Below are positions 4,931 to 35,162 of a stretch of 50,643 nt of DNA, piece after piece. Position 1 is the first letter of the stretch. Each line of letters begins with the position of its first letter. The position numbers were made by a program, and so were the translations under genes. The notes beneath the pieces were generated by a model. That model saw nothing but the letters and a program-made list of their open reading frames with translations. It ran no database searches and was not told where the DNA came from. The DNA comes from Alloascoidea hylecoeti. Its lineage: Eukaryota. Location of the stretch: assembly GCA_001600815.1 (NCBI GenBank), contig BCKZ01000005.1, forward strand, positions 443,532 through 494,174. Reading direction: 5' to 3'.

Positions 4931-5602
4931 TTTAACAAAAATTAATTCTACTGATAACAATTAATTGGGAAAAATAAGATCAGACGATGACATCAATAAA
5001 ATTACAACTGTAGAGAAACCCCTGACTTTTTTCTTACATATTAGTTTTGATCAATTCTCTTTCAAATAAGTTCGTTTATCAATCTTATGAGAATATCAAC
5101 CGGCCTTTGGTTATTTTTCTTAAGACAATCTGATATTGATGGGGTTTTCTTGATTACATATAGCTTTTAACGTTATATTCTAAATTTCTAATATACCCCA
5201 AGTTTGCTATGCCAATGTGTGGTGAGCCTATTTTTCGAAATAGGAAAATAATCTGATGATAACCATGATTAATCAAATGGAGTACGTGATTAATTATAAG
5301 TGTTATGAGACTATTTTAATGAGCGACAGTTACTAACCTTACATACGCTAATATATTAAGGTGAGGATAACATCTAACTTATTTAAGTATTTATAGGTAA
5401 AATCGGAATTATGCCCAGAAATATCAATTATTGGCTGTACTCATAATATTTTTTATATATTATATTTTTATGATATTAATTATTGCTTTTTACGGGTTTG
5501 AACGGGATTAATATACTTTCAATTACAGGGATATAAATATGATGAATCTTGGTATATGTATATATTAATTAGAATTGCAAGGTGAGAACAATATATCGAA
5601 AA

Positions 5603-6652
5603 ATGAAGTATAAAAATCTTGGAAATTCAGGTCTTATGATCTCTAAAATTATTATGGGCTGTATGTCCTATGGTGAGAAAGCATGGGCCGAATGGGTAAT
5701 TGAGGATGAAGAAAAAGTATTATCGTTAATGAAGAAAGCTTACGATGTTGGGATTAGAACATATGATACAGCAGATACTTATAGTAATGGGCAATCCGAA
5801 ATCTTATTAGGAAAATTCCTTAAAAAGTATTCAATTAAAAGATCAACTGTTGTTATTTTAACTAAATGTTTTAGCGTTTCTGACCCTAATGGCAAACCAA
5901 CTATGGCCGAAATGGTTAAAATTAATACTGGAATTGGTGAAAATACAAGCTTAATACAGGGATATGTTAATCGAATTGGATTATCCAGGAAGCATTTGAT
6001 GGATGCAGTAGATGACTCTATTGAAAGACTTGGAACCTATATTGATTTATACCAGATTCATAGATTGGACCCCATCACACCAAAGTTAGAGATTATGACT
6101 ACTTTAAATGATATTGTCAGATCGGGTAAAGTTCGTTATATTGGAGCTTCAAGCATGAAAGCCGTTGACTTTGTACAATTACAATTCACAGCAGAGAAGC
6201 ATAACTTGACAAAATTCATCTCCATGCAGAATTTCTATAATTTATTATATAGAGAAGAAGAGAGGGAAATGATTCCATTTTGTAAAGAAACTGGAGTTGG
6301 AATAATTCCCTGGTCACCACTTGCTAGAGGTGTTTTAGCACGCCCTATTCATGAAAAACTAAGTTCATTACGTGCTAAGACTGATCTTGGAATTCAATTA
6401 TTTTTAATGGATACTTCAGATTCCGTGAATGAAATTCATAAGAGAGTTGAAAGGGTAGCGAAAGATAAGGGAGTTTTAATGTCTCAAGTTGCGACAGCTT
6501 GGGTTATTTCTAAAGGAATGTGTCCGATTATTGGATTTAGTAGTGAAAGCCGAATTGACGAGGCAGTTGAAGGGCTTAAAGTGATTCTTAGTAATGAAGA
6601 GATCAAATACTTGGAAGAGCCATATATTCCTCAAAATGTTGTTGGATACTAA
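5603..6652 (+). CDS. Aldo-keto reductase, aryl-alcohol dehydrogenase/YPL088W-like, copy 1
   Basis: LGNSGL..SKIIMGCMSYG, DTADTYSNG, LTKC, IDLYQIHRLD, GKVRYIGASS, PWSPLARG. ATG at 5603; the track start at 5582 is GTG. Confidence 0.93.
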   Translation: MKYKNLGNSGLMISKIIMGCMSYGEKAWAEWVIEDEEKVLSLMKKAYDVGIRTYDTADTYSNGQSEILLGKFLKKYSIKRSTVVILTKCFSVSDPNGKPTMAEMVKINTGIGENTSLIQGYVNRIGLSRKHLMDAVDDSIERLGTYIDLYQIHRLDPITPKLEIMTTLNDIVRSGKVRYIGASSMKAVDFVQLQFTAEKHNLTKFISMQNFYNLLYREEEREMIPFCKETGVGIIPWSPLARGVLARPIHEKLSSLRAKTDLGIQLFLMDTSDSVNEIHKRVERVAKDKGVLMSQVATAWVISKGMCPIIGFSSESRIDEAVEGLKVILSNEEIKYLEEPYIPQNVVGY

Positions 6653-6819
6653 TTTTTCAAGAGTATCAATTAATTAATTGGCTATTCATGTATCGTCGGA
6701 CGGACCTCGTCAGACACCAACTTACAGGTACACAAATCAGCAAAATATAATTATATGTCTCTTATTTTATCTTTGGTATAATACTTATAATTCTTTAGGC
6801 GTTATTCTAATTAATTTCG

Positions 6820-7788: not shown

Positions 7789-7959
7789 TCGATTATTGAT
7801 AAATCTACTGAAATGTATATAAGGCCTTATAGAGTAACACTTATATACATTTTGCGATATTAATTCAATTGCAATTGCAAGCTTAAAGATTGAATAAGTC
7901 TAGTTAAAGGATTGATCATTCATACATTGACAAATAAAGTATTTACAATCAATTGCAAA

Positions 7960-9000
7960 ATGGAATATCAAAATCTTGGAAATTCAGGTCTTAAGATCTC
8001 TAAAATTATTATGGGCTGTATGTCCTATGGTGAGAAAGCATGGGCCGAATGGGTAATTGAGGATGAAGAAAAAGTATTATCGTTAATGAAGAAAGCTTAC
8101 GATGTTGGGATTAGAACATATGATACAGCAGATACTTATAGTAATGGGCAATCCGAAATCTTATTAGGAAAATTCCTTAAAAAGTATTCAATTAAAAGAT
8201 CAACTGTTGTTATTTTAACTAAATGTTTTAGCGTTTCCGATCCTATTGGCAAGCCACCTGCCAATAGTCTGGCCATACCTGAATTCGGACCTGTTAATAC
8301 AAAACAAGAGTATGTTAATCGAGTTGGATTATCCAGGAAGCATTTGATGGATGCAGTAGATGACTCTATTGAAAGACTTGGAACCTATATTGATTTATAC
8401 CAGATTCATAGATTGGACCCCATCACACCAAAGTTAGAGATTATGACTACTTTAAATGATATTGTCAGATCGGGTAAAGTTCGTTATATTGGAGCTTCAA
8501 GCATGAAAGCCGTTGACTTTGTACAATTACAATTCACAGCAGAGAAGCATAACTTGACAAAATTCATCTCCATGCAGAATTTCTATAATTTATTATATAG
8601 AGAAGAAGAGAGGGAAATGATTCCATTTTGTAAAGAAACTGGAGTTGGAATAATTCCCTGGTCACCACTTGCTAGAGGTGTTTTAGCACGCCCTATTCAT
8701 GAAAAACTAAGTTCATTACGTGCTAAGACTGATCTTGGAATTCAATTATTTTTAATGGATACTTCAGATTCCGTGAATGAAATTCATAAGAGAGTTGAAA
8801 GGGTAGCGAAAGATAAGGGAGTTTTAATGTCTCAAGTTGCGACAGCTTGGGTTATTTCTAAAGGAATGTGTCCGATTATTGGATTTAGTAGTGAAAGCCG
8901 AATTGACGAGGCAGTTGAAGGGCTTAAAGTGATTCTTAGTAATGAAGAGATCAAATACTTGGAAGAGCCATATATTCCTCAAAATGTTGTTGGATTCTAG
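7960..9000 (+). CDS. Aldo-keto reductase, aryl-alcohol dehydrogenase/YPL088W-like, copy 2
   Basis: Same AKR motifs as copy 1; ATG at 7960. Nucleotide-identical to copy 1 over most of its length apart from the ends and one internal loop. Confidence 0.93.
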   Translation: MEYQNLGNSGLKISKIIMGCMSYGEKAWAEWVIEDEEKVLSLMKKAYDVGIRTYDTADTYSNGQSEILLGKFLKKYSIKRSTVVILTKCFSVSDPIGKPPANSLAIPEFGPVNTKQEYVNRVGLSRKHLMDAVDDSIERLGTYIDLYQIHRLDPITPKLEIMTTLNDIVRSGKVRYIGASSMKAVDFVQLQFTAEKHNLTKFISMQNFYNLLYREEEREMIPFCKETGVGIIPWSPLARGVLARPIHEKLSSLRAKTDLGIQLFLMDTSDSVNEIHKRVERVAKDKGVLMSQVATAWVISKGMCPIIGFSSESRIDEAVEGLKVILSNEEIKYLEEPYIPQNVVGF

Positions 9001-9256
9001 TTTTCTTGTATTTAACCCAGTATTACAAGTCGTAAATATAATTCCAATTCAATAAAATATTAATAGATATATGTTCTAGATCTTAGGTAATAGAAGTCTA
9101 GAGACCTTGTAAATGCCGATACAGAGTGTGTACCGATCCCAATTGAACGGTAAAACCGTTGCGATATACCAGACTATTTATAAATTTTATATATAAACAC
9201 GAATGTATCACACATTAGATGTGCATCAAACAAAAATGCAAGGCAAAACAGCAAAC

Positions 9257-13993: not shown

Positions 13994-15052
13994 ATGGCCT
14001 CAAAACTACGTTATTTTGATATTGGTATCAATCTTACAGATCCAATGTTCCATTCATATAAGGATCTCCCACAGGTCCTTAAACGAGCTGCAGCAACAAA
14101 TGTTCAAAAACTTCTCATTACTGGTTCTTCATTATCCGAAACCAAAAATGCAATTGAATTGTGTGAAGAACTTCAATCTCAATCATTAAAAGATTATAAT
14201 GGTATAAAATTTTACTCAACAGCTGGTGTTCATCCTTGTGCTGCTAATGAAATAGTAGCTACAGAGAAAACTCATAAGACATCAGATGAATATTTATCCG
14301 AGCTAATAAGTATTACTCAATATGGTATATCTAAAGGTATAGTTAAAGCAATTGGTGAAATTGGTCTTGATTATGATAGATTACATTATACACCTGCCGA
14401 TGTTCAACGTTTATATTTTCAAAAACAACTTGAAATAATCGTCAAAGAGAATTATAATCTACCATTATTTTTACATTCTAGAGCATGTCATGAAGATTTT
14501 ATAAAAATATTAAAACCATTTTTAATAAATTTACCAAAACGTGGTGTTGTTCATTCATTTACTGGTACAATTTCAGAAATGCAAGAATTAATTGATTTAG
14601 GATTTTTCATTGGAATTAATGGTTGTTCATTAAAAACTGAAGAAAATTTGGAATTAGTTAAATCTTTACCATTAAAATATTTAATATTAGAAACAGATGG
14701 ACCATGGTGTGAAATTAGACCAAGTCATGCTAGTTCTAAATATTTAAAAGAATATCCTAATGATTTTATACCTCAGATTGCATCACCAATAGAACTTGAA
14801 GAATCTACACCAGACTTAGGATTACAAACAAAATTGAAAAGTAAAAATATCCCGAAACAATCCCCACATTATCCATTCACTCCTCTCAAAAAACCAAAAT
14901 TTACTCCAGGTTTTAATAATATGTTAAAATCAAGATGTGAGCCATGTCTTATTGGACTTGTTGCTGAAGTTGTTGCGGGCGTTAAAGGAATTGAAGCTCA
15001 AGAAGTTATTGATGCTGCTTGGGAAAATAGTTGTCATTTATTTGATGTATAA
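13994..15052 (+). CDS. TatD-family 3'-5' exo/endonuclease (YBL055C-like)
   Basis: DIGINLTDPMF, TAGVHP, IGEIGLDYDR, PLFLHSR, GVVHSFTG, GINGCSLKT, LETDGPWC. Confidence 0.93.
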   Translation: MASKLRYFDIGINLTDPMFHSYKDLPQVLKRAAATNVQKLLITGSSLSETKNAIELCEELQSQSLKDYNGIKFYSTAGVHPCAANEIVATEKTHKTSDEYLSELISITQYGISKGIVKAIGEIGLDYDRLHYTPADVQRLYFQKQLEIIVKENYNLPLFLHSRACHEDFIKILKPFLINLPKRGVVHSFTGTISEMQELIDLGFFIGINGCSLKTEENLELVKSLPLKYLILETDGPWCEIRPSHASSKYLKEYPNDFIPQIASPIELEESTPDLGLQTKLKSKNIPKQSPHYPFTPLKKPKFTPGFNNMLKSRCEPCLIGLVAEVVAGVKGIEAQEVIDAAWENSCHLFDV

Positions 15053-21525: not shown

Positions 21526-21623
21526 TGCTCCGTGGGAGGCTCGAACTCTCGACCTTCAGATAACACGTTTTCGCATTACACGGATATATGAGACTGACGC
21601 TCTACCAACTGAGCCAACGGAGC
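21526..21623 (-). tRNA. Elongator tRNA-Met(CAT) with a 25-nt intron (21562-21586)
   Basis: Reverse complement GCTCCGTTGGCTCAGTTGGTAGAGCGTCAGTCTCATA[intron]ATCTGAAGGTCGAGAGTTCGAGCCTCCCACGGAGCA gives a 73-nt mature cloverleaf. T7 Pol III terminator at 21518-21524. Confidence 0.95.
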
Positions 21624-21660
21624 TCAGGTTTTGTTGCAGCGAGAATAATCTTAAATCAAT

Positions 21661-23445
21661 CTATAGTAGAGATTTCCTCAGAATTTACATAGTTTCTAGT
21701 TATATAATTTAATTGGAAAATATATGAAGTCAAAAAAAAAAGAGTTAAAGAGAAGTTAAGAAGAAGAAGAGGTTTTATACTCTATAAGTGATTTCCTCAA
21801 TTTAATAGTTTTTAATTAAAAGTTTTAATCGGAAATTATATGTAAAATTGAAAAGAAAACAAATAATAATGAGGAAAAGAATTAAGGATGTATAGAAAGT
21901 AAAAATATTACTAGACTCAGTAGACTGTCTATTAATTCTGTCAGTCAACAGATATAAGAAAAAATTAGGGTAATTATAAAACCGAATAGATGAGTGAAGA
22001 AATACCCAGACTTGAGCTCATAGAACGAAGATGGGCATGAATGGGTAAAATATCAAAAAAGCCTACAAGAAAACACAATAGATTCATATGTTTAGCATAG
22101 GATACGTAACCCAAATGATTCACTCAAATTAGCGAGAAAAAAGGCGGTGGCACAAATCAGATATGTATAACTTATTCCAACAAGGAAAAGATGATATACT
22201 ATTGCGACATCTGCTTGAAGAATGCTCAACCATAAAAATACTAAAGAGAAAAATGCCATGATCTGACAGGGTAGGACTCAAAACATTAATAGTAAACCAC
22301 AAATAAGTAAGGATTGAAAAGAAGGGCCAATATATAGAAAAGGTATTAGAAATGATTTGGAATTAAAGAAGAGCATAAGATATGTAGAGACATCACCTCA
22401 AAAATTAAATAACATAGGCTGAGGAATTTTAATATTCAAGTCATAGAGAAAATATAACAATAAAAAAATTAAAACTAACGGTAGTTTAAATAATTTAGTC
22501 AAAAAATAAAAGAAGAAAAAGAAAAATGAAGACTTATAAGATCCTATATAAAGATGTAGAGGTTTTTTTGCTTTATGTGTGATTTTTTCTTGAATAGTTT
22601 CTAGTTAGAAGTTTTAATTGGATTGGATATAAAAAATATTAAAAAAAATAAAGAGAGAGAGCACAAACCGCAAAATAAAGATCACTGGTACTCAATGTTA
22701 AAAGGTAAAGAAACATTAAGAAAGCCTACAAAAATACCCAAATTTAAACAACAATGTGCCCTCAGCCTTAATTAGCATAGGATAGCCCATAATTATATTT
22801 GTATGGTTTAGTTCATTATAAGTTTGAACACGCTTAAATCTACCTCCCCACCCCCATACTAGTATCATGCTTATAACTTTTTTTAAAATATCCAATTATT
22901 AGATATTACAAAATAATATCTCTCTAAATATTTTGGATGAAAGACTTATAATCATAAGTAATATTCTTTGTTAAAAAGTATGAGCAAAAAATGAATTAAA
23001 GGTAAAATTTCTTTGCCTATAGGTTTATAGACTAGAGCATATTGAAAGTAAGATATCAATGAGGAAGCATGGGTTAAGGGTTAAGTCCCAATCATATTTA
23101 TTAGACTTAAGAGTCAAAATATAATTGGCATAAAGTTGAGACCTGTTCATTCTAAAATTTTCTTAACAATGAAGAAAAACGGAGAGTGAGGGGTTATGCC
23201 TTTTGTTGATTATTTGTAAAATGCTATCTGTTAAGACATCAAATTCTCCTTCACGGTAATAGATGTGATTTTTTCTGAGTATTTTAGTGGCAATAATATT
23301 TGGACAATTTGCCTTATTAGATTTTCCTAACATTATAAATTTCCAATAAAATTCTAACTAGAAACTATATGTTTAGATGAATAGCTCACTCTTATTGTGA
23401 AAACCCCCTGCATATATCTTCTCTCCGTTTTTAGAGACAAATAAT
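21661..23445 (+). mobile_element. Array of 5'-truncated non-LTR retrotransposon 3' ends upstream of tRNA-Met
   Basis: Units at about 21661-21741 (A10 tail), 21742-21870, 21870-22652 (A-rich tail), 22655-23310, and an inverted unit at 23341-23445. They share GAGGTTTT..GTGATTT..ATAGTTTCTAGTTA..TTTAATTGGA. The long unit encodes a decayed CCHC finger [Y]NL[F]QQGKDDILLRHLLEEC and LELKKSI..TSPQKLNNIG*GILI. Confidence 0.7.
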
Positions 23446-25585: not shown

Positions 25586-26462
25586 TTAATTGGATATATT
25601 TTTTTTTTCTTTTTTTTCTTTTCTTGCAGTAATTCTCATTCCTTGAGAAGCAAAATGTTTACTTAATTTTGTACTATCAATCACACCAGGAAATCTTTTT
25701 ACTGTATATACCTGAAATATATTTGAATAACAGGTGGATTTAACTGCTAAAGTGTTTTCAACAGCTAGAGAGCCATCATCGGATGAACCGATATCCGAAA
25801 GTTGATATAAGTGGAATTTCAAACGAAAGAATCCTTCGGATCTAATCGATAGATCATTGAAAATAAACCAAATTCCAGGATTTTGTTCAAGATCATTTAG
25901 TTTAAAAGCAGTTGCCGTCAAACAACCAATTAAATTTTTAGATGGAGGTTGTAGGTTTAAAGGTTGAATGTAACTATAGAGATCCTCTTCATAAGGATGT
26001 TTAGAATGATGTTCACGATGCCCTTTGGATTTTCTTTTTGAAATTGAAGAGGACGAATCAACATTTATTTTAACTTTAGAACCATCCAACTGATTATTAT
26101 AATTTGAATTGGAAGAATAACCATTATTGGTGTGATCGTGGAAGCTCTCCTGCACTAACGAACGGTTTCGTGTTTCATCAGGTGACCGTAATTCAGTTAT
26201 CAGAACAAAAGTCGAGGTGTCAATACTATTCGGATCTAATTCCTCATTTGTATCGGAATCATAAATAGAAAGACGAACGAAAGGAGGAGGGGAAATTGGT
26301 CGACGATCCTAAATATGTAAAAATAATAAGAAATTGATCGTTAGAATTCCAAAACTAATTGCAATTAGTTGTAAATGAACATACTTTATCACCGAAACCA
26401 CATGTCCTAGCCCGAACAGGTTGCTGAACTACTTGAAGTTTATAGCTGATACCTTTAGTCAT
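25586..26462 (-). CDS. velB: Velvet-domain regulator VelB, 266 aa; exons 26462-26385 and 26308-25586
   Basis: Exon 1 MTKGISYKLQVVQQPVRARTCGFGDK; 76-nt intron GTATGT...TTCTAAC...TAG (26384-26309); exon 2 DRRPISPPPFVRL... with a split velvet domain (NLIGCLTATAF, GIWFIFNDLSIRSEGFFRLKF, KRFPGVIDST.LSK.FA.QG). Confidence 0.9.
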
Positions 26463-29094: not shown

Positions 29095-29110
29095 ACATAT
29101 TTTTTTTTTC
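29095..29110. repeat. Left target-site duplication ACATATTTTTTTTTTC
   Basis: Identical 16-mer at 33560-33575. Reads (G)AAAAAAAAAATATGT on the element strand. Confidence 0.85.
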
Positions 29111-29410
29111 AAGTAGCCATTAACGCTCTATATAAGACTGCTTTATCTATAAATACTATATTTATAACAACCAAAAAATGTGAAAATAAAAAGACCTATT
29201 ACTAGGCAAAAATACCTATTACTAATGTTATAGGTTCACTCTTTTTTGAGTATTGTTGTTACTTTATTATAGTATTATTGCCACCATTTCCAACTTCTTA
29301 CTCAATCAATACGAATAAAGGATGTCATATGTATACATCTTTCCTCTTTTTCTTTTTTTGTCCGTAGCACCTAAGTGATTCAGAACAAAGCTTTGTGGAG
29401 TCCGTTTCAA

Positions 29411-31942
29411 TCATTTTACACCATTGTAATTCTGATAAACTATTCTCCTGTTGATAATATCTTCTGTGATATTTTCTAACCAAAAAAACTGTTTTACCGC
29501 TCTTAATATTAATTCTTTTTTTTCCTTATGGTTAAAATCAAGAAAAGATTTCACTTCAATTTCCTTTTCTTTTAGTTCTATCACCTTTTGGTTATAGGAC
29601 CATATTTTCTTTGTAATTTCACATGTCAAGAAAACATGTCCAAAGGATCATTCCAACTTTTCACAGCAGGGACATCTTTTGTCTTTAAGGTTGTTGTAAA
29701 AATGTAAATATGAAACCACTGCAGAATATTTGGTAGTCATTACGTTTGATAAATATAGGTTATTTTTGTGGATTGTTTTCCATAGCAAATCCCATCTATT
29801 GACTCCAATTGTGTAGGTTTTTTCCATTTTGGTACTAATACTTTTTGGTTTGCTTTGAAAAATGTTTTACAAATGCTCAACTGAATTTGTCGAGCACTTC
29901 ATTTTGTAGACCAATGAAGTCCTCTACTTTTAAAATTTGGGTTTTTGCTGATTTATCTATCAATTCCATGGATTGATTGAATTCTTTAATTGACCTTAAA
30001 CTTTTATTTTTAATATATTGTTGGTTTATGTCACCAACTTTTGTGGTGTCCCAGAAATGGGCTATATGTGTTCCAGGGCTGAATTATTTTGAGGTTTTGC
30101 TTAAAGCATTGGAGGTAATGCACATTTTCTGTCGAAAATTTTTCATGAAAATATTTATTATTGATTGAAAACATTTGATCCCAATCCAGGTGTATTAAAT
30201 TATCATTTTTAGCTTTTTTTTCTTTTTCCATTATTTTATTTGCTAATATTGAGGCTTTTACCCCATGAAATATCATTTGTTCCCTGATTGTGATTTGGAG
30301 ATCCTCATCGTCATTGGTTAGTAATGATGATAAATAATAGGAATGACGGCCTTTCTGTTCAATCATTAGGTCTATCAGACCATAACCTCCACTCTTTGCA
30401 GGAGTCGTCAACACTTTGAGCGATACTTGTCCATATGTACCTATATTATTTTTAATTATTTTCATAATGTCGTTCAAGATACCTTTTGGGGTGGTGAAAT
30501 TCCATAAGAAAAGGCGTCTTGGACATAACGTAAATATTTACTATGATGCACCTCGTTCGTATATTATTATGATGGTGAAATAAAAAATCCAACCTTGATT
30601 TAATATTGTTAATCATCTCTTCCCAGATTTTTCCGGGGTTCACACCTCTACCCATTGTTATTCCCAAATATTTAAAACTGTTAACGATTTCAAACTTGTG
30701 TATTTGTGATTGATTATTTATAGAACACTTGGTGTCCATTGGAAAGTATATTTTTGTTTTCCCAGCATTAACTACCGAACCAGATGAACGTTTATAAAGA
30801 GATAGTGCCCTATCAAGGACAAGTTCGTCGTCTCTGGAATTAATATAAATTGATAAGTCGTCTGCGAATAAGCTCACTTTAAGTGAGCGGTGGTTTTTTA
30901 TAGCCGATATAGACGTAACAGGTCATTTAGTGATTGCCCTTGAATGTTGATTTTTGTAATTTGTTGAGCTTTCTCTATTTCATTTTCATTTATGGACTAG
31001 ACCCCTTGTTCTTAAGTATAAAAGTCAGTTCCCTCGCAAGTTTCTTTATTTCGGATTTTTTAACCATCCAATGTTTATAGGCTGGAAATTCTTCCGGCAA
31101 TCGAATGTGTCCTTTACAAATGTAACGAACATTATCAGCATTGTAAAGCAGAGATCTGCTAATGGAAAAGGGTCTATTGTTCCTAGAGAGATTAGAGGTG
31201 GGTTCCAATTTCATATTGATCGCAAAATGGGTAGAGTGTTTCTTGTTGGATATCGAAGATTTTGTAAGATCGTTTGTTAGAGAGGAAGATATATAAAATC
31301 TGTCCAGTCTTCTTCTTGCTGATATTGCAGATTGAATATTGGAAAATTGTTTCTTTGTTGGGTTTAATTCTCTAAAAGAATCAATTAAAGAATATTGACT
31401 CAGAAGTTCTTGTAGCTGACTGACTCCTTGATATTTAATTCTAGTGGGAACCGAAGAGTCAAGAGAAGGTAATTCAACACAGTTGAAGTCACCTCCCCAT
31501 ATTAATTGGTGCTTTGATACGCGTTGGATAAAAGGTTTCATTGATTCGAAATATTCTATTCTTTCGTGGCCGGTGCATGGTACATGGGAATTGATGATGG
31601 TGATAAAATCCTTTTGGTATTCTATGTGAATAAGGGAGGTATGTGCTTGAAAAGTATAGCGAAATGGTTCTCTAATATTTTGAGCGAAAGAGTTCCATAT
31701 TTGGTGTTTTGGTATTTTTGTGGAAACATGTTTTAATTAGAATGATTGTCAAGTTTGAATAAGCCATCTCAATTTCGATTTCCTAGAGCTGCTTTCTTAA
31801 GCTGAGGAAGTCTCAGCCTCGGGTTTCTTGTTATAATAAAATTGTTAAATTGTCATTTTGCATAAACTAGTTAATAATTAACGATTGAGTTAATTTTGAG
31901 AATCTTCCCACATTTTGAGGAAATATTTATATATTCAGACAT
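29411..31942 (-). pseudogene. LINE ORF2 (APE endonuclease - reverse transcriptase - CCHC finger), disrupted
   Basis: ATG at 31942 (MSEYINISS..NV, ILL*QET), GGDFN, LIDSFR, RLDRFY, STH, SLFADD, FKYLGI, KSGGYGLID, CPCC...HVFLTC. Contains stops and frameshifts, and RT subdomains upstream of FADD are deleted near 30880-30990. Confidence 0.88.
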
Positions 31943-31949
31943 TAATAAT

Positions 31950-33460
31950 TTAAAGAAGATGGTGGTACGCTATTTGGCCCAGCTGGTGAACCCTTTTGTA
32001 TAGTTGTATCAGCGTTAATTTATTAAAATGAGATCTATTATTCACTTTAGTAGGGCTTGAGTGATGACTCCTAGAGCGTAGACATCTAGGAGTTCCAGGA
32101 GATTCCTCGGGGGATATTAATGGCCTCGCAGGGATATGATTAGTGTTATTAAATATGTTAATGTCTGTTACCGGTTGAGTAGCAGTAACCGTATGTTCAG
32201 GAAGATCTATAGTATCTGATACAACACTAGAATCCAATGAAAAGTTTTCTGGGTACCCTTCTGCTTCGGAATCTGTGATATCCATTGTTTCAGTAGCCTC
32301 CATTTGGTTGGGGATATGTGGTTCATCCTTGTTAGATGATGACATGTTCAAAAGGGGATTCTTTTCTGATTTCAAATCTGCAGCAAAGGCGGCATCTTCA
32401 TTTTCAGAAGAATCTTCGGCCATGGTAAAGTCATCCGAGGATTCACTATTGGGAGATTCGTCAGCCTCCGATTCCAACATCCGCAATAGGAGTAGATGGT
32501 CTTGACGGATAAGCGTTTTGTTTTTTGGGGTTTTTCTTTCTTAATGGGGTGGAGATTTTAAGTGGAGGAGCGGGTGCTTGCAGATTCTCCTCAATTGGGT
32601 CCGGATCCCTCAGATGTTCGAGGACGCCAAAAGGATTTTTTTCTAAATAGGGATGGGAGGTGTTTGCCGGAACGGATGCCTGAGCAACCTTGTGAGCCTT
32701 CTTTTTCCTATCATTACCATCAGCAACGCGGGGGGAGGATTAGCGGCTTGTTGCTGCTGAGTTCTCGCGCCACCAGAAACAATTGGCAAATGATAAACAA
32801 GCTGTTGGGGACAACTTGCTTTACCGTGGAAAAGTGAATTGCAATGAATACTATATAGCTTTCCGTTTGGCTTCACGTGAAGTCGGAAAGAGTGAGCAAT
32901 GGATCTACCTCGAGAGGTAACCTTAAAGTTGTTACTACCTTTGGAATAGTAGTGGGTGCGTGCATCATCGGGAACTTCTACTAAGAGAAAGTTTGGTGCT
33001 TTAACGATAATCTGAGATAGATTGTCTGTATCATTCAAATTGTTTGCAAGAAAAGCAATTGGTTGACAAAATTGGTCAATTGTTTCTGCAAGTTCTTTTT
33101 CCACTTCTGCAATATGGATGGGGGCGTCCGTAGTAATGACCGCCACCTTTAACAAAGGGTTGATTCTTTCCATAGGAAGGATTTGGGCCAAAGCGTAAAA
33201 TGATAATGAGTTCATTATCTTAATGATACCGGACGCGTGCAAAGGCGACCAATTGGTCTCCCCTGTTACAAAAATAAGGTAATTTCACCTTTTTACCAGT
33301 AAGCTTCTTTTCCACATCGTTTTGGAATCATCGATGGTCTTATTATCAGAAATGATTAATCGGTATAGTAAAGCTCTCGGGTTGTTTGCCGCAACTTCGG
33401 CATGGCGTAACATACTATGCACCTCATTAACAATGGAGGCAAAGAGGGGGGCTTTGATCA
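31950..33460 (-). pseudogene. LINE ORF1 (gag-like), disrupted
   Basis: Frameshifted ORF fragments 33242-32643 and 32486-31950, a degenerate knuckle [S]IHCNSLFHGKASC and an acidic Ser/Pro-rich tail. Stops 7 nt before the ORF2 ATG. 5' limit approximate. Confidence 0.65.
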
Positions 33461-33559
33461 CTGTTTCCCTGTTGGGGGGCCAGTGACAAGATACGGTTTA
33501 GTTTTAGGTACCTTTTTGTCTCAAATAAAGACAAATTAAAATATTATTTTTTCTGGGGC

Positions 33560-33575
33560 ACATATTTTTTTTTTC
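33560..33575. repeat. Right target-site duplication ACATATTTTTTTTTTC
   Basis: Identical to 29095-29110. Confidence 0.85.
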
Positions 33576-33644
33576 CACATAGGCTACCCAGTTATGTCGA
33601 TTAAAAATCGAAAAAAGAAAATTTCGGTTCATTTGATAATATAA

Positions 33645-33715
33645 TGCGTCAGCCCGGAGTCGAACCGGGGGCTCTTCGATGGCAACGAAGAATTTTACCG
33701 CTAAACCACTAACGC
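33645..33715 (-). tRNA. tRNA-Gly(GCC)
   Basis: Reverse complement GCGTTAGTGGTTTAGCGGTAAAATTCTTCGTTGCCATCGAAGAGCCCCCGGTTCGACTCCGGGCTGACGCA folds as a cloverleaf with a GCC anticodon. T6 terminator at 33611-33616. Confidence 0.95.
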
Positions 33716-33759: not shown

Positions 33760-35162
33760 TTGGGTGTTCCTTTGGTCTAGGTACATAAGAAGGGAAGAAA
33801 GAAGAGCGTCAAGAATACACAAAAATAAGAAGAATAGAAAGAGAGAGGTTTTTATTTCACTATATATAGTAGAGATTTTCTCAGAATTTACATAGTTTCT
33901 AGTTATATAATTTAATTGGAAAATAAAAAAAAAACTATAGGCTAATAATAGATACATTATATACATTAAAGGTGTTAGAAATTAGGAAAAGTATTACATC
34001 ACCCGAAACCTTAAACGAAATAGATTGGGGTATTTTATTTTCCAAATATTAATATAACATTATAAAATAAAAATGAATGAAAACAAAATAAACAAGGTGG
34101 TAAGAAAAAGAGAGATAATAAAAACAAATAAGTAGAGAAATGAAAGAGAAATAGAGAAGAAGAAGAGGTTTTATACTCTTGGAGGAGTGATTTCCTCAAT
34201 TTAATAATTTTTAGTTAGAATATTTCAATTAATTAGATATTTTAATCAGAAATTATGGTTAAAAAGAAAAAAAAAAAAAAAGACACCACCACAAATCTTA
34301 TATGAGATTGATTGGGGGATTCTAATATTGGATATATAGTTATATAGTTATATTAAAATTGTTTTTGTTATTACATAGTTACATATATATGGGGTGATAT
34401 TTATGGTGAACTAATTTCACTTATATATTAGCTAGTTCCTACATTAGTTAGTTTTAGAAAATACACGTTCTTTTTATAATAAAACTTTACTATGCCTCAG
34501 AATAAATCCAAGGACATCAATGAGCAAGAGCCTCTAAGCCAACATCTAATATCTGAAAACTTGAAAAAGTAAAAAAATTCAAGGTGGTCTAGGTTCATAA
34601 GAAGGGAAGAAAGAAGACATTAATATTAAGAAGTAGTATGGAAATAATAATCAAAGAATAGTCGAATAATGAGTTCCTTTACATTTCGTAAGAGAACCAT
34701 ATAGACCTTTCCTTTTTTGTTCTTCTAAAAAAGAGCTTTACATCTCGTTATTATGTAATTGTCGTTCGTCTTTAACTTATTGTTGTTCTTGTTTCATATA
34801 TTCATGTTGCTATATTATATATATTCTCACGTTACTATTGTTAGTTGTTATATATCGATCATATGGCTATGGCTTTTACTTGAACTATATAAACCCTCAT
34901 TTTCCTAGTCTTCAGTCTTAGTATAATATACTTAACTTTCCTTTTCCTCTCGATCTCCAACAATTTTTGTAGAGAAACTAGGAAACGGTCCTCTTACGAG
35001 TGTGGGGTATCTTAATGTGGTGGCATTTATTTAAATAAATAAGAAAGAGGAGAAGGACAAGAAAGATATAATAAGATAAAGAGGTTTTTCATTTCCTTCA
35101 TTAAATAGTTTTTGGTTGGTCATTTAATTGGAACTTATATATAAAGTTTAAAAAATAAAAAG
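33760..35162 (+). mobile_element. Array of 5'-truncated non-LTR retrotransposon 3' ends upstream of tRNA-Gly (same family as 21661-23445)
   Basis: Units at about 33760-33934 (A10 tail), 33935-34281 (A5GA15 tail), 34282-34340, 34400-34680 and 34969-35162. About 60 bp are near-identical to 21662-21722. Shared ORF-end peptides WVFLWSRYIRREERR / IDWGILFSKY / IDWGILIL / WSRFIRREERR / WGILM. Confidence 0.72.
34718..34962 (+). mobile_element. Possible solo LTR (245 bp) nested in the array
   Basis: TGTT...AACA ends, near-matching 5-bp flanks TTTTT/ATTTT, internal TATATAAA at 34886. Only one copy is visible. Confidence 0.35.

Follow-up and report, generated by a model that had tools for sequence, protein, structure and literature searches.

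The 50,643-nucleotide stretch of Alloascoidea hylecoeti contig BCKZ01000005.1 analysed here (the window) carries a tRNA-Gly(GCC) gene (33645..33715, minus strand) followed by a decayed retrotransposon without long terminal repeats (non-LTR), which we place in the L1 clade and assign to a family that we call D (downstream of tRNA). The element occupies 29111..33559, also on the minus strand, and measures 4,449 bp, or ~5.35 kb with its deleted part. It is enclosed by a 16-mer that is present exactly twice in the whole window (29095-29110 and 33560-33575). The repeat next to the tRNA-Gly gene, which is the target gene, lies 70-85 bp from the tRNA 3' end, past runs of T4 and T6 (33611..33621, minus strand) that presumably form the terminator for RNA polymerase III (Pol III). 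The first-pass annotation of this DNA had described a 4.45-kb element with two open reading frames, named ORF1 and ORF2, between identical repeats, co-oriented with tRNA-Gly and with its 5' end turned toward the tRNA 3' end just past the terminator, and this layout was confirmed. Copies of D elsewhere in the genome occupy the same flank, and we are highly confident that the insertion of D is directed by tRNA genes.

All parts of the element are on the minus strand. Its first 49 bp (33511..33559) match no other copy and represent either a variant 5' end or extra sequence. The ORF1 remnant (31942..33510) is frameshifted and lacks the start codon of the copy on contig C3; it encodes a single degenerate zinc knuckle (S-x2-C-x4-H-x4-C at ~32810-32852), read from one broken copy, and an acidic, Ser-rich C-terminal half, and it had no Pfam match. 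The end of ORF1 and the apparent start of ORF2 are ~80 nucleotides (nt) apart, with stops in between, in a family whose copies are all broken. At the N-terminal end of ORF2, a remnant of an APE endonuclease (31200..31863; GDFN at 31496, RLD near 31310) had no match in Pfam, and its best match of solved structure was the human L1 endonuclease (E 7e-8). The C-terminal part of the reverse transcriptase (RT) follows (30452..30922; FADD at ~30868), and ~0.9 kb with the N-terminal half of the RT and its motifs is deleted near 30912 relative to a copy on contig C19. Since a contig from read run X3 crosses this junction without differences, the deletion is no artefact of the assembly. In a sister copy, the RT matched Pfam RVT_1 and was closer to L1 ORF2p (E 1e-8) than to R2 (5e-5). 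A CCHC finger ends ORF2 in five copies and is interrupted by a stop in the window copy (29612..29683); no RNase H family was found in the 449-amino-acid (aa) C-terminal piece of ORF2. The ORF2 stop at 29411-29413, common to three other copies, is followed by the 3' untranslated region (29111..29410). With frameshifts and stops in both ORF1 and ORF2, the window copy is dead. Family D has L1-type poly(A) tails and frequent 5' truncation, and most copies terminate in a G followed by poly(A). Judged from its domains and ends, D is an L1-clade long interspersed nuclear element (LINE).

The 3' 310 bp of the element were used as the query of a 3'-end search, in which 40 of 62 candidates were scored. 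All 44 matches, at 40 loci, sit 3' of a co-oriented tRNA gene, either directly or inside a stack. The distance from the tRNA end to the first D homology was 10-93 bp at 37 of the 40 loci (median 47.5 bp) and 232, 310 and 411 bp at the others, where other repeats lie in two of the three long gaps. An exhaustive census of the D terminus (18-nt pattern, at most one mismatch) returned 48 hits, with none in the control, and a co-oriented tRNA gene was present within 6 kb on the 5' side for 43 of these. We also drew 63 tRNA genes by Rfam score, regardless of elements, and among the 62 examined D was found downstream in sense at 24, downstream in antisense at one, upstream at one and upstream pointing away at none. 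The sole antisense case is a convergent tRNA pair sharing one copy, and the sole upstream case adjoins an assembly gap. A census of the B box (139 hits against 31 in the control; pattern carried by 18 of the 62 sampled genes) suggests that the genome holds roughly 370 tRNA genes; the chance proximity of a site to a tRNA gene is 0.4% if there are 400 genes and 1.8% if there are 2,000. The preference of D for the tRNA 3' flank is real, family-wide and orientation-specific, and it exists alongside an upstream family, U, which is described below. The TRE3-like geometry proposed earlier from the single copy holds in that D is downstream and co-oriented across the family, but the 70-85 bp of the window copy exceed the family median.

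The D-bearing genes (n=51) have 28 ARAGORN anticodon labels (a few of them miscalls), and seven contain introns. A run of at least four T lies between gene and junction in all 51, and the tRNA trailers are unique except for a pair on contigs C8 and C16 and two local inverted pairs. It could be proposed that the units of tRNA and LINE tail are chimeric retrocopies, similar to short interspersed elements, in which the tRNA moved with the element. One tRNA-Thr unit would suit this proposal, as its C16 locus repeats the C8 locus down to the same junction; however, the C16 unit adjoins an assembly gap, and the otherwise unique trailers, the variety of labels, the genes that kept their introns and the terminator-like run at every locus make such an origin hardly credible. 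The repeated unit itself (L091:6142-6417 and L092:5309-5584) consists of tRNA-Thr and a 127-bp D tail, 98% identical on the two contigs, and its C16 version, which abuts an N gap, may be an assembly duplicate. At L015:1179-2017 and L046:3434-5228, tRNA genes and the flanks next to them have been duplicated locally in inverted form, in a convergent arrangement at one locus and a divergent one at the other, and each duplication received LINE insertions afterwards. ARAGORN oddities in L015, L047, L041 and L085 (Asn-att, Ser-act, Stop-tta) are probably misread intron-bearing tRNA genes.

The identical repeats around the window copy had been taken for a perfect target-site duplication (TSD). The 16-mer repeat is present, but since most D copies end in G and poly(A), 11 of its 16 bases at the 3' junction cannot be told apart from the end of the element itself, which leaves only five independent. 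Specifically, the 5' copy (33560..33575, minus strand) consists of G, A10 and five further bases, and in the 3' copy (29095..29110, minus strand) the G and A10 are at once the last G and the poly(A) tail of the element. This layout is what target-primed reverse transcription of the usual kind would leave at an A10 run if it duplicated 15-16 bp; the sequence also allows the 5' repeat to be the stub of an earlier tiny D insertion with its own duplication of 5-6 bp. Across the 35 of 51 D-bearing loci that have exactly one recognisable terminus, the median TSD was 2 bp, a TSD of at least 10 bp occurred at only two loci, and a core of at least 4 nt was found at seven, compared with 2.7 in shuffles (p 0.012). 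The long TSD is a peculiarity of the window copy and is atypical of family D.

The same loci speak to a Zorro3-like preference for poly(A) runs with an incidental tRNA neighbour, which the first-pass annotation had raised as its own alternative in the form of a preference for A10 runs. The window copy does lie at an A10 run and is flanked by A10 at either end, as described for Zorro3 (PMC7175516). However, a run of at least six A lies ahead of the 5' junction at 3 of the 35 loci only, and all of the 3'-end matches are tRNA-linked; when the genomic copies were tabulated against tRNA genes, they did not turn out to lie at poly(A) sites without tRNA proximity. As a rule for family D, poly(A)-run targeting is refuted, and we give this explanation almost no credence. 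No motif shared by the junction sequences of the 35 loci was seen by eye, and the top strand there is often T-rich. Dewa and Kibi are examples of the tRNA-array types among the sequence-specific Tx1 elements, and a conserved target sequence of that type was likewise not seen by eye across these loci.

The arrays upstream of the tRNA genes belong to the second L1 family, U, which has its own CCHC finger. In the window, a divergent stack of U 3' ends begins 49 bp before tRNA-Gly (33765..34290, plus strand, with more pieces to ~35160), and another U stack (21659..22652, plus strand) begins 35 bp before an intron-bearing tRNA-Met(CAT) gene at 21526-21623. D and U have no blastn match to each other and their RT identity is 22-31%, in agreement with the initial view that the element differs from the upstream arrays. 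Both families orient their 5' end toward the tRNA. U was upstream and divergent at 41 of the 62 sampled genes, with stacked 3' ends ~50-70 bp from the gene, and both D and U were present at 18; together with the 24 genes bearing D, this bears out the suggestion that the host carries LINEs targeting either side. Among 121 fetched genes, a set enriched through the choice of loci, U was upstream of 86 and within 100 bp of 61 (median 61 bp). In run X1, the summed contig depth of the U 3' end was ~150x that of the single-copy flank, which is not a measure of copy number. Downstream of tRNA genes there are also two or three additional LINE families, mostly in sense, and with all families counted the downstream flank is occupied at 31 or more of the 62 sampled genes. 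The third family (L164, at C5:328630-329545; L158, L157 and L163), with its own CCHC finger, is often directly behind D copies and was found among the 121 genes 29 times downstream in sense, three times in antisense and once upstream. A fourth family had eight downstream sense hits (e.g., L034:5660-6120 behind tRNA-His), and a relative of the third family, a 2-kb copy that bears an RT, is also downstream of a tRNA gene (L146:630900-628850, C15 coordinates).

What the D copies directly display is where and in which orientation they sit, their L1 anatomy, their poly(A) tails and 5' truncation, TSDs that are short or missing, and stacking. It is quite likely, in our estimation, that D inserts by target-primed reverse transcription and that the tRNA gene, not the target sequence, fixes the position, mostly 10-100 bp past its 3' end, beyond the terminator and co-oriented. 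Given this co-orientation, the first nick should fall on the template strand of the tRNA gene, with reverse transcription proceeding toward the gene. L1-type endonucleases prefer TT/AAAA, a preference that on a T-rich top strand would yield antisense copies, and local sequence therefore does not explain the orientation of D. We infer that a protein tether to the Pol III apparatus is probably the cause of the targeting. The D ribonucleoprotein would be tethered most likely to TFIIIC on the internal B box, or to terminating Pol III, and the tether would position the endonuclease for the nick; later insertions would displace older ones outward and so build the stacks. The window copy would have hit an A10 run inside the zone, where its tail could anneal and give the unusually long duplication, before it decayed. 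A B-box-like hexamer was present in 3/70 trailers of tRNA genes without D, and this rarity of external B boxes fits a zone that is closer than that of TRE3 and has the internal B box or the terminator as its anchor.

An explanation free of any tether is that D enters the open, nucleosome-free DNA behind active tRNA genes, and that strand exposure during Pol III termination sets its orientation. The wide spread of distances (10-104 bp) without an obvious period would be expected in such a case, as would the absent target motif and the sharing of the zone by several unrelated LINE families. tRNA genes are flanked by open DNA on both sides, and the division of these sides, with D on the 3' side and U on the 5' side of the same genes (18/62 with both) and no D upstream pointing away among the 62, argues against it; we consider this explanation unlikely, although clearly the most serious of those weighed here against a tether.

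Several observations weigh against the proposed tRNA-directed insertion. In the 3'-end search, 22 of the 62 candidates were left unscored. For five of the 48 termini, three of which have the same repeated flank, the ~1.5-2.6 kb fetched on the upstream side contained no tRNA gene. Likewise without a tRNA gene are a D copy of 2.3 kb on C3, situated in a small LTR element's 5' LTR, and the surroundings of a 55-bp D fragment on C17; no Rfam match was present in the DNA fetched around these off-target copies. The excess of TSDs over shuffles is modest in size. Reads from four runs, whose contigs can show presence only, were searched for the empty site and revealed neither a joint that skips the element nor an empty allele. 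Searches with APE, RT and RVT_1 returned no intact D copy and no new insertion was observed, so that targeting is deduced from old copies. Every copy seen being old and broken, with a few away from tRNA genes, could also be expected if insertion was random and selection then spared only the copies near tRNA genes. Selection would not readily confine copies to a single side and orientation within a zone of 100 bp, with the opposite pattern in a second family, and the genome has long intergenic stretches; we regard this account as highly improbable.

Three of the four read runs cover all 30 bins. Run X1 does not count as independent, because the assembly may have been built from it. None of the runs listed with the sequence was an RNA run, which carries no information about expression. 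A contig from run X4, a wood-decay metagenome with flank differences, spans the 3' junction, and the insertion is therefore common to another strain. A joint between 29164 and 33644 was rejected as the empty site, as it matches a short copy behind another tRNA-Gly gene. The LTR element whose 5' LTR holds the only long tRNA-less D copy (L040:2437-5183) has ~94-bp LTRs, an internal part of ~200 bp with a B-box-like motif, and a primer site complementary to the initiator tRNA-Met of the genome; similar LTRs occur in L076, L136 and L035. Three tiny D termini (C23:220136, C30:1567 and C30:182081) share one repeated segment, and the two on contig C30 are at its ends and possibly subtelomeric.

The kinship of both families was assessed in an RT tree of 45 rows, limited to L1-like proteins, with which a 76-row tree agreed on the placement of D and U. 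U grouped with the L1s of Candida subhashii, C. jaroonii and Metschnikowia (support 96/87), and D formed a long branch outside the group of Candida and Metschnikowia L1s and U. Forcing a D+U clade cost 10 log units (p-AU 0.116 in the approximately unbiased test), and as the clade is not rejected, separate origins of D and U are not demonstrated. No close relative of D was found: among the best 150 RT hits from 1.84 billion representatives, none exceeded 40% identity except two short proteins that were ~90% identical. The named RT relatives, including name look-ups of 20 proteins, contained no TRE, Zorro, Ylli or Tx1. With the C-terminal 449 aa as query, no longer relatives turned up (weak evidence), a metagenome scan gave four loci with matches of 19-23 aa, and an atlas contained generic RVT/zf-RVT clusters only. 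With regard to a true TRE3 acquired horizontally from a dictyostelid, the side, orientation and domain order are alike and the long branch of D outside the yeast L1 group would be compatible with such a transfer. However, the low identity of the best RT hits, in a library that may not contain TRE3, and the apparent ~80-nt spacing of ORF1 and ORF2, where an overlap would be expected, leave this very improbable. We lean toward the view that several deeply diverged L1 lineages independently gained tRNA-adjacent insertion and split the flanks, with U ~60 bp upstream and D and two or three other families downstream, while a D+U clade is not rejected. If true, the dictyostelid TRE5/TRE3 system was repeated by convergence, and contact with the Pol III machinery on the 3' side (TFIIIC or Pol III as it terminates) evolves easily and could be dissected by yeast genetics.

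In dictyostelids, TRE3 elements insert 40-150 bp downstream of tRNA genes in sense and TRE5 elements 44-54 bp upstream (PMC5006619, PMC5911963); TRE5-A requires the B box and binds TFIIIB (PMC5911963). Family D resembles TRE3 (TRE3-A to -D, present in Dictyostelium discoideum and further dictyostelids) in its downstream sense position and domain order, but it resides in a fungal host, its zone is closer (10-93 bp, median 47.5 bp) and it shows no sign of using external B boxes. Unlike in TRE3-A, the ORFs of D, read from copies that are all broken, appear spaced and not linked through a -1 frameshift. A common ancestor is described for TRE3 and TRE5, whereas D and U are very distant by RT identity, even if their clade is not rejected. 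By analogy, D appears to work like TRE3, which does not imply membership in TRE3. U resembles TRE5 and NLTR-B of P. pallidum in its upstream position and opposite orientation (median 61 bp for U, 44-54 bp for TRE5), but differs from TRE5 in its grouping with yeast L1s. The dictyostelid element Skipper-2 also inserts downstream of tRNA genes (7-140 bp), but it belongs to the LTR class with an integrase.

Among yeast elements, Zorro3 of Candida albicans is likewise of the L1 clade, with zinc knuckles in ORF1 and poly(A) at its sites as on both sides of the window copy. It integrates at poly(A) runs (PMC7175516, PMC3956500), with no known regional preference, which is not the behaviour of D; Zorro3 has two ORF1 knuckles and D one degenerate knuckle, seen in one broken copy. 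Ylli of Yarrowia lipolytica is another L1-clade element of a yeast; many of its copies are truncated at the 5' end and carry poly(A) tails, clear TSDs are lacking, and the text available on it reports no tRNA association (PMC5014426).

A 2018 review stated that insertion downstream of tRNA genes occurs only in dictyostelid genomes and is not found in S. cerevisiae, and suggested that it could lower the fitness of yeast (PMC5911963), and a 2016 study described TRE targeting as unique to dictyostelids, with TRE5-A alone studied in detail (PMC5006619). Most fungal non-LTR elements have been called uncharacterised (PMC13728883). Our literature search, with most subscription journals and Repbase outside its coverage, found no fungal LINE that targets tRNA genes. 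Our results show that both tRNA-flank geometries arose in another kingdom than that of the dictyostelids and are tolerated there: LINE pieces are downstream of at least 31 and upstream of 41 of the 62 tRNA genes. They provide naturally paired specialists for the upstream and the downstream flank in a type of host with strong Pol III genetics, where an intact relative, if found, would open the downstream mechanism to testing, and possibly safe-harbour integration tools for yeasts.

Other RT matches in the genome include those broken only or mostly by TGA on small contigs (C53, C63-C67, C72, C76, C80, C125 and C133), the pattern expected of mitochondrial intron-encoded RTs, and several long-ORF copies that are probably LTR elements. 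The remainder of the window contains tandem aldo-keto reductase genes (5588-6656 and 7945-9004) that are 95.5% identical to each other, a TatD DNase gene (13994-15052) and, as signs of a fungal host, a velvet-factor gene (25586-26308) and a flocculin-repeat gene.

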